Assembly (NCBI GenBank): GCA_000092065.1
Contig: CP000594.1
Origin: Ostreococcus lucimarinus
Taxonomy: Eukaryota
DNA: 64,000 bases
Direction: 5' to 3' (one strand)
Made by a program: the position numbers and the translations under genes. The notes below the pieces were generated by a model. It saw only the letters and a program-made list of their open reading frames with translations, was not told where the DNA came from and ran no database searches. Positions 20,056 to 21,885 of this stretch are shown here, piece after piece; positions within the stretch are counted from its first letter, which is position 1, and the number at the start of each line of letters is the position of its first letter.

Positions 20056-21363
20056 TTAATCGCGACCGGAATCGCGCGCGGCGTTCCGGATTTCGGTGCT
20101 ACTGACGTCGACGCGAAAAGACGGGAGGGCGGCGAAGAGGTCGGCGGCGCGGCGCGCGGCGGCGGCGGCGAGGACGTCGGCGGCGGGGACGAAGGCGCGA
20201 GAGACGCGGTCGACGCGGCCGGCGACGAGGAAATCGCACGCGTTGGCTCGGATTTCGTTGAGGGATTCGTCGAGGGCGGCGTCGGAGCCGGCGTATTTGG
20301 GGTCGAGGAGACGCGCGGCGGTGTCGGCGCCGACGACGAAGGCGGCGCCGGGGGCGGCGCGGGTCTTGTCCACGAAGAGTGGGGTTTTGGTGAGTAAACA
20401 CACCGTGCCGGGGGTGGAGAACTGCTCGAGTCGACGCATGATCTCGTCTATGGAGAGCGTCCCCTTGTCGGCGTTCGTGACGCCGATTTCGTACGCGCCG
20501 AGCGCGCCCGGGGGCTTTGTCGCCGTCGCCGCGGCGAGCAAGTCGCGGTGGCCGTCGTGCAAAGGGTTGAACGACCCACTCAACACGACGTTCGCACGCG
20601 TGGCGCCCACTGCGGTGAGCACGCCCCCCGTGAATTCCAAAATCATCGGCGCCGCGGTGGTGGCACCGCTCGTCGACGAGTCGTCCTCCGCCAACCACCG
20701 CTCGACGACGGCGCGAGCGTCGCTCGCGTTTGCGTACGCCGAATCCTCCATCGTCGTCACCGAAACCTCGTCGAACTCGCGTTCGCTCAGAACTTCTCGC
20801 ACTAAATCTACACCCGCGTCCGCGTCCGCGTCATCGACGCTCCGCCTCGCTTCCTCGTACAGCGCTCGCAACACCAACCGCGACGCGCAGCCCTCCTCGT
20901 CGAACCGCGAGCGCCCGCTCGTCTTCTCCAATCGCATCTCGTACGTCGTCATCCGCCCCAGCGTCTTCGCCGCCACGAAACATCTGTGGTCGCCTCGTTT
21001 GACGACGTCCTCCGTCGTCAGCGCGCACGTCGCGCCGAGGCCCGTCGTCGCTCGCGCGTCGCTCGCCGACGCCGTCGCTCGCGAGCTTCCGTGTCGCACC
21101 GCCCTCGCGTACGCCGCGCTCGCCAGCGCCTCCGCGACTTCCCGCGAGCAGTACGATTCCACGTCATCGTCCGTCGCCCTCCCGAGCGTCTCGAGCGCGC
21201 TCTCGCGCGCGTACGGCACGCGCGCGTCCAATAAAGTGTTCGAGCACCTCGGGACGCTCGTCAGCCACCCGAGCGCGCGCGCCCCGCCGCCCGTGACGTG
21301 CAGCACCGCCCTGACCTTGCTCGCGTGGATCGTCTCCACGATGGCGCGGATTCCGGGCTCCAT
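20056..21363 (-). CDS. Two-domain NAD-salvage-like protein: N-terminal CinA-C/PncC-like (NMN deamidase family) domain fused to C-terminal NadD/NMNAT-like nucleotidyltransferase
   Basis: N-terminus LHVTGGGARALGWLTSVPRCSNTLLDARVPYARESALETLG resembles the CinA C-terminal AESCTGG...VPGSS...V.Y...K..LG block. C-terminus has GSFNPLHDGH (HxGH nucleotidyltransferase motif) and terminal SSTEIR (NadD SxTxxR motif). Confidence 0.55.
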   Translation of the reverse strand: MEPGIRAIVETIHASKVRAVLHVTGGGARALGWLTSVPRCSNTLLDARVPYARESALETLGRATDDDVESYCSREVAEALASAAYARAVRHGSSRATASASDARATTGLGATCALTTEDVVKRGDHRCFVAAKTLGRMTTYEMRLEKTSGRSRFDEEGCASRLVLRALYEEARRSVDDADADAGVDLVREVLSEREFDEVSVTTMEDSAYANASDARAVVERWLAEDDSSTSGATTAAPMILEFTGGVLTAVGATRANVVLSGSFNPLHDGHRDLLAAATATKPPGALGAYEIGVTNADKGTLSIDEIMRRLEQFSTPGTVCLLTKTPLFVDKTRAAPGAAFVVGADTAARLLDPKYAGSDAALDESLNEIRANACDFLVAGRVDRVSRAFVPAADVLAAAAARRAADLFAALPSFRVDVSSTEIRNAARDSGRD

Positions 21364-21519
21364 CGGCGCGCGCGCGACGCGGCGTCGCGCGGTGAAGTGC
21401 GACAGCGCGTCCCGGTCGTTCGTTCAAACGTTCGCGTCACACGTCGACGCGACGACGCGCTCGATCGCGCGCGCGCTCGCGAGCTCGAACGCAGGCGCGC
21501 ATCGCGCGGTCGTCGACGC

Positions 21520-21885
21520 ATGCGCGCGAGGCGAACGGGCGCGGCGGCGGCGAACGAGGACGACGCGCGATTGGCCAAGTATCTCGTCGTGAACGCGGAA
21601 AACGTCGCGCACAACGCGCGAGTGAGCGCGCGAGTGTTCACGTACCTGAGCATCGTGTCCGGAATCGCGATCGGCGCGCTCGGATACACCGGAGTGCGAG
21701 GGTTCGCGGCGCACGGGGTGTTTATGCTGGCGAGCGCGTGCGCGGTGGCGGCGAGCAAGTGCGAGGGACGACCGACGAGTTTCTTTCCGTCCGTCGATAA
21801 GGTGTTCCTGGACGGACCGAACGCTGGATTGCCGACGTTTGTGTTGTTTTGGACGCTGTCGTATAATTGCTGGCACTTGTTTTAG
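21520..21885 (+). CDS. EMC6: ER membrane protein complex subunit 6 (EMC6, Rab5ip family)
   Basis: Two TM segments and C-terminal PTFVLFWTLSYNCWHLF aligning to human EMC6 FTYVLFWTFLYGMVHVY; central GIAIGALGYTGVRGF matches ATAGILGLTGLYGF. Confidence 0.7.
   Translation: MRARRTGAAAANEDDARLAKYLVVNAENVAHNARVSARVFTYLSIVSGIAIGALGYTGVRGFAAHGVFMLASACAVAASKCEGRPTSFFPSVDKVFLDGPNAGLPTFVLFWTLSYNCWHLF

Follow-up and report, generated by a model that had tools for sequence, protein, structure and literature searches.

The question raised by this locus is what a single protein does with two domains that resemble consecutive enzymes of NAD recycling. The protein is encoded on the minus strand of a 64,000-nucleotide stretch of Ostreococcus lucimarinus DNA (contig CP000594.1 of assembly GCA_000092065.1), hereafter called the window. 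An earlier note had taken its N-terminal half for a CinA C-terminal (PncC) domain, the nicotinamide mononucleotide (NMN) deamidase, and its C-terminal half for a NadD/NMNAT-like adenylyltransferase, and had proposed that NMN is converted by this one protein to nicotinate mononucleotide (NaMN) and then to nicotinate adenine dinucleotide (NaAD). Both folds are indeed present, but the residues of the N-terminal domain argue against the first of these steps. Our preferred explanation, to which we assign a probability of roughly 0.55, is that an NMNAT/NadD-like adenylyltransferase is permanently coupled to a mononucleotide-binding domain of CinA fold whose chemistry, if any, is new. The C-terminal domain most likely would adenylylate a pyridine mononucleotide, joining NMN and/or NaMN with ATP to yield NAD or NaAD and pyrophosphate. 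The N-terminal domain more likely would bind a phosphorylated nucleotide, probably of the pyridine type, and hand it to the adenylyltransferase or regulate that enzyme, or else it would run a different reaction by means of H13, T43, H126, K147, R153, and E156. The protein belongs to an uncharacterized family of two-domain enzymes that is both ancient and large.

20056..21363, minus strand: complete, intron-less coding sequence of 435 codons plus stop, defined from the list of open reading frames (ORFs) and full-length colinear homologs
20848..21363, minus strand: N-terminal CinA-fold domain, residues 1–172
20611..20847, minus strand: inter-domain region, residues 173–251, delimited from a family alignment and from the secondary structure and confidence of a structural model
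20059..20610, minus strand: NadD/NMNAT-like nucleotidyltransferase domain, residues 252–435

The minus-strand ORF is confirmed as a real gene for a single polypeptide with both domains by its 163 database homologs, the majority of which are colinear with it at 97–100% coverage. An in-frame stop 21 codons upstream establishes M1 as the start, and the protein lacks an obvious targeting peptide because the conserved core starts directly at its N terminus.

Evidence for the CinA fold comes from family profiles and from structure comparison. Alignment A1 comprises 49 full-length homologs, from which the N-terminal domains (A2) and the C-terminal domains (A3) were cut, and A4 is a diverse set of seven real CinA/PncC proteins assembled from plasmid records. 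The four best matches of the A2 profile in the PDB are all CinA proteins (2a9s, with an E value of 0.005, 4ct8, 4cta, and 4uux), and hhalign aligns the N-terminal domain with A4 at 90% probability and an E value of 1.7e-6. An AlphaFold2 model built on A1 has a predicted local distance difference test score (pLDDT) of 90.3 and a predicted template modeling score (pTM) of 0.90; when it was searched against the PDB with Foldseek, all of the top 18 matches belonged to the CinA superfamily (probability 1.00), with the same alpha/beta fold and the same order of strands and helices. The Pfam CinA model (PF02464, gathering cutoff 23.5 bits) gives a divided answer to the earlier assignment. The window protein itself has no match to this model even at E ≤ 10, and its relatives supply the support: 22 of 28 family members match individually at this threshold (best E value 5e-6), and 2 of the 10 members tested pass the cutoff, at 30.2 bits (the stand-alone N-terminal protein of locus L103) and 25.3 bits, in a profile alignment that is approximately 1:1. 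One sequence match in the PDB, to HopZ1a/Orf34 (5klp, E 9e-5), was rejected as spurious, being confined to an Ala/Ser-rich stretch and supported by neither the profile search nor the two fold searches. The inter-domain region is in part an insertion common only to close algal relatives in A1, and is largely ordered in the model (pLDDT above 90 at about residues 180–220), where it forms helices and a short strand.

The C-terminal domain carries the sequence elements of a nucleotidyltransferase, located by translation or by hhalign alignment with E. coli NadD.

20548..20577, minus strand: GSFNPLHDGH, the HxGH ATP-binding motif, residues 263–272 (translation)
20320..20331, minus strand: GADT, counterpart of 'GQDS' in NadD (hhalign)
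20293..20301, minus strand: PKY, with Y357 opposite W117 of E. coli NadD ('PTWY'; hhalign, 43% probability)
20086..20103, minus strand: SSTEIR, the SxTxxR ATP-binding motif, residues 421–426 (translation)

Both ATP-binding motifs named in the earlier note (H269-D-G-H272 and S421-S-T-E-I-R426) are intact and invariant in the family: the G, S, F, P, H, G, and H of the first are found in all 27 C-terminal domains of A3, and S421, S422, and R426 of the second are invariant in A1, as are G345, D347, and T348 of the GADT element. By its motifs, the domain is predicted to be catalytically intact. In a Pfam search with the window protein alone, CTP_transf_like (PF01467, gathering cutoff 21 bits) is the only match, at 22.3 bits over residues 261–427, in agreement with the earlier assignment; the domain by itself scores 24.2 bits, and 27 of 27 family C-terminal domains match, with a best E value of 1.4e-10. 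In the hhalign comparison, the domain and E. coli NadD run colinear over the HxGH motif, 'FVVGxDT'/'FIIGQDS', 'PKYY'/'PTWY', and 'SSTEIR'/'ISATIIR'. In the fold comparison, NMN/NaMN adenylyltransferases are nearer to the domain than other HxGH enzymes are, since phosphopantetheine adenylyltransferase reached only 7.3, cytidylyltransferases 6.2–6.8, and FMN (flavin mononucleotide) adenylyltransferases 5.0–5.6. NCBIfam searches with the window protein gave only weak matches to NadD and phosphopantetheine adenylyltransferase models over the motifs, and the NadD equivalog cutoffs (112–240 bits) are missed with TIGR00482 (20.5–24.4 bits) and PRK00071 (11.9–19.3 bits) alike.

The domain is therefore a separate family inside the NadD/NMNAT structural clade, and not a NadD orthologue. 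It is only 13–20% identical to proteins of the NadD/NMNAT group (TIGR00482; 9iw1, 4rpi, 2h29, 5z9r, 1k4k), has its own invariant residues (E292, N297, D299, K300, R351, and R383), and has an extra beta-hairpin before strand 1. It also differs at the aligned aromatic position, where Y357, conserved in at least 90% of A1, stands opposite a NadD Trp. In NadD, this Trp packs against the pyridine ring. In human NMNAT1, mutation of the equivalent W169 abolishes activity (PMC12470169). Yeast Pof1 (YCL047C), an NMN-specific NMNAT, resembles the C-terminal domain, when compared by description only, in being a small CTP_transf_like protein, and at 258 amino acids it seems too short to hold both domains of the fusion protein. 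Plant proteins of the 'nucleotidylyl transferase superfamily' presumably have been placed in one group with Pof1, a candidate relative of the C-terminal domain. Among small CTP_transf_like NMNATs, Pof1 is the only characterized one that lies outside the canonical family (PMC13191266, PMC12470169). It has T/HxxH and SxxxxR motifs (PMC13191266) and lacks the Trp that is conserved in other eukaryotic NMNATs (PMC12470169).

If the N-terminal domain were a PncC-type deamidase, then the residues used by PncC for catalysis should be found in its pocket. In the A. tumefaciens CinA protein (AtCinA), S31 is the proposed nucleophile, K63 is the general base, and S48, Y58, and R145 hold the phosphate; the S31A, K63A, Y58A, and R145A mutants have no detectable activity (PMC5384747). 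An alternative mechanism, based on the T. thermophilus structure, needs the same absolutely conserved lysine (PMC4246079). The corresponding positions in the window protein are as follows.

21283..21297, minus strand: VTGGG loop, residues 23–27, counterpart of the CinA 'ESCTG' block (three registers)
21292-21294, minus strand: T24, at the position of the PncC nucleophile Ser (three registers)
21241..21243, minus strand: S41, counterpart of the phosphate-binding Ser, S48 of AtCinA (2a9s/4ct8 profile and hhalign)
21211..21213, minus strand: Y51, counterpart of the phosphate-binding Tyr, Y58 of AtCinA (2a9s/4ct8 profile and hhalign)
21196..21198, minus strand: A56, where PncC has its essential general-base Lys, K63 of AtCinA and K61 of E. 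coli PncC (three registers)
20986..20988, minus strand: H126, family-specific and near-invariant, Val in E. coli PncC (hhalign with CinA proteins)
20905..20925, minus strand: basic loop K147...R151.R153 before the last helix ('KGxRDR' against CinA 'SGDRD', and Pfam profile coordinates)

Three independent registers were compared: alignment of the family N-terminal profile to 2a9s and 4ct8, an hhalign comparison with real CinA proteins, and Pfam profile coordinates, in which residues 8–159 of E. coli PncC occupy positions 3–153 and residues 6–137 of the L103 N-terminal protein occupy positions 6–138. Before residue 32, the register was extrapolated without gaps, backed by the 2a9s/4ct8 profile and the Pfam coordinates. 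All three agree that, for the window protein and the E. coli/A. tumefaciens proteins respectively, T24 corresponds to S29/S31, S41 to S46/S48, Y51 to Y56/Y58, A56 to K61/K63, T112 to S103/T105, and G124 to G118/G120; R151 probably corresponds to R142/R145, to within about one residue. The motifs quoted in the earlier note are where it had placed them, with VPRCS at residues 37–41 and VPYARESALETLG at residues 49–61. Of the Lys, Ser, and Arg that it had proposed to check, the Arg probably is retained, the Lys is absent, and T24 occupies the Ser position.

A census of 324 unique N-terminal domains, taken from 72 bacterial loci and from the representatives left after clustering at 50% identity, extends this map to the family. 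At the general-base position, Lys occurs in 0 of 324 sequences, the residues being Leu (158), Met (104), Phe (20), Val (14), Thr (14), Ile (6), and Ala (4), so that Leu or Met accounts for 81%. At the nucleophile position, Thr (137), Ala (122), and Ser (63) are found, and the Glu that precedes the nucleophile in the PncC 'ES' block is replaced by Val or Leu. In contrast to this dyad, the phosphate clamp is kept, with S41 in 315, Y51 in 323, and R151 in 320 of the 324 sequences; G25 and G124 are invariant. Residues that have no CinA counterpart are also conserved, namely H13 (302), T43 (294), H126 (311), K147 (318), R153 (323), and E156 (322). The N-terminal domain thus appears to have lost the Ser/Lys amidohydrolase dyad while keeping the 5′-phosphate clamp of S41, Y51, and R151. 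The pocket looks re-tooled rather than merely decayed, and it still looks built for a 5′-phosphorylated ligand.

These data bear directly on a bifunctional enzyme that channels NMN through NaMN to NaAD, with Thr24 or Ser24 assisted by a substitute base such as K147 or H126. Such an enzyme would fit the two confirmed folds, the conserved clamp together with T112 (the T105 counterpart), the Thr or Ser found at the nucleophile position in the window protein and in land plants, and the fact that PncC and NadD catalyze consecutive steps (PMC4246079). Other fusions in NAD recycling are known as well: COG1058-PncC (CinA), NadM-Nudix, and NadR likewise join two pyridine-nucleotide-handling domains, although the domain pair differs (PMC3680494, PMC4246079). 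However, the lysine that is required by both proposed mechanisms, and whose replacement inactivates AtCinA, is missing throughout the census, and the 'ES' block has lost its Glu. Moreover, because Ala occupies the nucleophile position in 38% of sequences in which the remaining pocket is invariant, the residue there is not under catalytic constraint. Given the loss of the dyad, the N-terminal domain is probably not a PncC-type NMN deamidase, and we regard the channeling enzyme as improbable.

Substitutions of this kind have precedents among CinA proteins. In E. coli, the paralogs YdeJ and YfaY carry substitutions at active-site residues and are inactive on NMN; the fungal lineage 2.2.3.4 resembles the fusion family in retaining the Tyr without the Lys, and its Ser position is occupied by Ala (PMC3855486). 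YdeJ-type proteins have lost the phosphate-binding blocks that the fusion family keeps, and none of these proteins is fused to an adenylyltransferase. Compared with PncC itself (EC 3.5.1.42; PF02464; 2a9s, 4ct8/4uoc), the fusion family lacks the Ser/Lys dyad (Lys replaced by Ala, Leu, or Met, and Ser by Thr, Ala, or Ser, with the preceding Glu lost) and adds the nearly invariant polar set of H13, T43, H126, K147, R153, and E156. In addition, the window copy falls below the Pfam cutoff, and the fusion partner is a nucleotidyltransferase rather than COG1058.

The joining of the two domains is the rule in this family, not a peculiarity of Ostreococcus lucimarinus. The earlier note had considered it unusual for a eukaryotic alga, whereas the family normally is built this way and is spread over Viridiplantae, several bacterial phyla, and a red alga. 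Homologs that span the full length come from angiosperms, mosses, charophytes, chlorophytes (Chlamydomonas eustigma, Bryopsis, and Elliptochloris), the red alga Porphyra, and Chloroflexi. In an exhaustive profile search, 3,564 cluster representatives reached E ≤ 1e-3, and 2,699 reached E ≤ 1e-10; most have about 380 amino acids and carry the domain at the N terminus; the extra domains of longer homologs (500–660 amino acids), one of which has TPR repeats, were set aside as uninformative about function. A prokaryotic scan with one genome per species gave at least 583 relatives, of which the 80 best loci were analyzed. These come from Chloroflexota (Dehalococcoidia, Chloroflexia, and Anaerolineae), Planctomycetota, Alphaproteobacteria, a Rokubacteria metagenome-assembled genome (MAG), and Photorhabdus. 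The genes are fused in 67 loci and split within the locus in 5, and 8 have the C-terminal domain only (3 of these are cut by a contig end). In split loci, a stand-alone N-terminal gene is followed directly by a stand-alone C-terminal gene: in the divergent lineage of L103, a TAA stop cleanly ends the first gene, and the second starts with GTG after a spacer of 21 nt, whereas the two frames overlap in L102. Repeated fusion and fission with adjacency retained, together with the high pTM, argues that the two domains act together.

The N-terminal domain might instead be a pseudo-enzyme that has decayed and now provides nothing more than a dimerization or scaffold module for the NMNAT-like enzyme. 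This proposal would account for the loss of the dyad, and CinA proteins are dimeric with a pocket that spans two subunits (PMC5384747). It also would accommodate the stand-alone C-terminal genes of some Chloroflexaceae, one Dehalococcoidaceae MAG, and Photorhabdus. Nevertheless, the former-pocket residues H13, T43, T112, H126, K147, R151, R153, and E156 are 91–99.7% conserved among sequences that are less than 50% identical, which points to ligand binding or catalysis rather than to a scaffold, and we consider a pure scaffold very improbable. The same residues are compatible with an N-terminal CinA-fold enzyme in which a new constellation of His13, His126, Lys147, and Glu156 around the phosphate clamp carries out a new reaction on a pyridine or related mononucleotide, or a deamidation independent of Ser and Lys, coupled to the fused NMNAT-like adenylylation. 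We regard this as a tentative possibility beside the preferred explanation.

Several points weigh against that preferred explanation. We infer the substrate class and any activity for every family member, what is observed being the folds, motifs, residue map, conservation, fusion/fission pattern, and taxonomic spread. The C-terminal domain lies far under every NadD/NMNAT family cutoff (20–24 bits compared with 112), and its substrate is therefore suggested by fold neighbors only. K147, H126, or H13 may act as a replacement for the lost lysine, and the equivalence of R151 with R145 falls just beyond the hhalign range, hence its uncertainty of about one residue. Finally, clustering of the neighbors of the 80 best bacterial loci revealed no recurrent NAD-metabolism gene, and the only recurrent neighbors are UbiD-UbiA-UbiX, in Dehalococcoidia.

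The Ubi genes follow on the same strand, in the order UbiD (+1), UbiA (+2), and a UbiX-like flavoprotein (+2 or +3). Of the 22 Dehalococcoidia loci, 17 show this arrangement, as do L041 and the metagenomic loci L007, L008, and L102; in the metagenomic loci, adjacent genes lie no more than 4 bp apart or overlap slightly.

Loci with this pattern: L007 (6001-10157), L008, L020, L021, L025, L041, L048, L053, L056, L059, L062, L066, L069, L073, L074, L076, L077, L080, L082, L087, and L102 (gene split in L102)

This arrangement invites the proposal that the protein has a role outside NAD metabolism, with another phosphorylated metabolite being adenylylated and the CinA-like domain binding it, perhaps tied to the Dehalococcoidia prenyl-FMN/quinone decarboxylase genes. 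Because the UbiD proteins are mutually 68–90% identical (70–72% for that of L102), the linkage represents one clade and probably one event, and among the 80 best loci, other lineages have no Ubi neighborhood. The neighborhood was down-weighted as a clue to function, since it is confined to a single clade and has no obvious biochemical link, and we judge a role outside NAD metabolism to be on the unlikely side.

The neighborhoods of stand-alone C-terminal genes also were considered as clues and set aside. In Chloroflexaceae (L003 4180-8289; L002, L004–L006), the 205-amino-acid gene has a conserved placement beside a 524-amino-acid protein without a Pfam match and a UDPGP-family gene, with no N-terminal-domain gene within 6 kb, and is uninformative. 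In Photorhabdus namnaonensis (L071 1909-8135), a homolog of 218 amino acids stands in a same-strand string with HIT-like (CwfJ_C_1), class-V aminotransferase, RyR-domain, PIG-L deacetylase, and GT4 glycosyltransferase genes, which offers no link to NAD.

Public annotation of the family ends at 'cytidyltransferase-like' or 'nucleotidylyl transferase superfamily protein', and the N-terminal half is unannotated in most records, although structure-based domain databases may already label it CinA-like. The A. thaliana copy lies on chromosome 3. We take this copy to be At3g27610, which we encountered only in gene lists, one of which annotates it as 'Nucleotidylyl transferase superfamily protein'. 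A literature search for At2g01220, which we presume to be a candidate locus, gave no papers. Likewise, we found no paper on the combination of a CinA fold with a NadD/NMNAT fold or on the characterization of the plant gene, so the earlier statement that the architecture is undescribed seems right; the CinA classification study explicitly left aside rare CinA fusions with other domains (PMC3855486).

The protein combines known folds, in line with the known fusions of NAD recycling, into a plant-wide enzyme that probably handles a nucleotide cofactor. Recognition of both folds makes concretely testable a gene that all land plants examined carry and that also occurs in green algae, red algae, Chloroflexota, Planctomycetota, and Alphaproteobacteria. 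Should the protein act on pyridine nucleotides, plant NAD metabolism would gain an unstudied player. To our knowledge, NMN deamidation is the only enzymatic activity of the CinA superfamily, and a catalytic role for the re-tooled pocket would widen its chemistry. If the new constellation were catalytic, At3g27610 and its homologs would represent an unrecognized nucleotide-cofactor step that all green plants have in common with red algae and with several bacterial phyla. The family also counsels caution in annotation, in that fold and adjacency suggest an NMN deamidase whereas the residues argue against it.

An identical protein occurs in 906 metagenome-index blocks, including TARA Oceans samples. 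In every metagenome contig examined, it is flanked by eukaryotic genes. One flank holds SAM synthetase, a WD40 protein, and EMC6, and the opposite flank holds plastid-type ribosomal protein S5 (rpS5) and a JmjC/Cupin_8 protein. The order gene-rpS5-Cupin_8 is preserved in a relative of 67% identity. This distribution and these flanks fit a cosmopolitan marine picoalga. The EMC6 gene is divergent and begins about 157 bp from the gene start (about 21364-21520, with positions derived from locus L096), and the two genes probably share a short bidirectional promoter region. One metagenomic homolog (P0002, 87% identical) has SGRHARERRVEWVVQPFARRPPRDLL in place of VGATRANVVLSGSFNPLHDGHRDLL of the window protein and so lacks the HxGH motif, most likely owing to a frameshift in a single-member assembly.

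On the plus strand, an antisense ORF of 498 amino acids (20096-21592) spans the whole gene, and other long overlapping ORFs lie nearby; all are best explained as artifacts of the high G+C content (68% there), not as genes. The G+C content of the window is 0.52–0.56 in the first 10 kb and 0.57–0.73 elsewhere, with peaks of 0.73 at 26–28 kb and 34–36 kb and a compositional boundary near 10 kb. Among plasmid proteins of Klebsiella, Enterobacter, and Citrobacter (L095 25-540, and H4–H20), a CinA-family member named '2-oxo-tetronate isomerase' keeps ESCTGG and the catalytic Lys and is 41.8% identical to E. coli PncC, and its name looks questionable.
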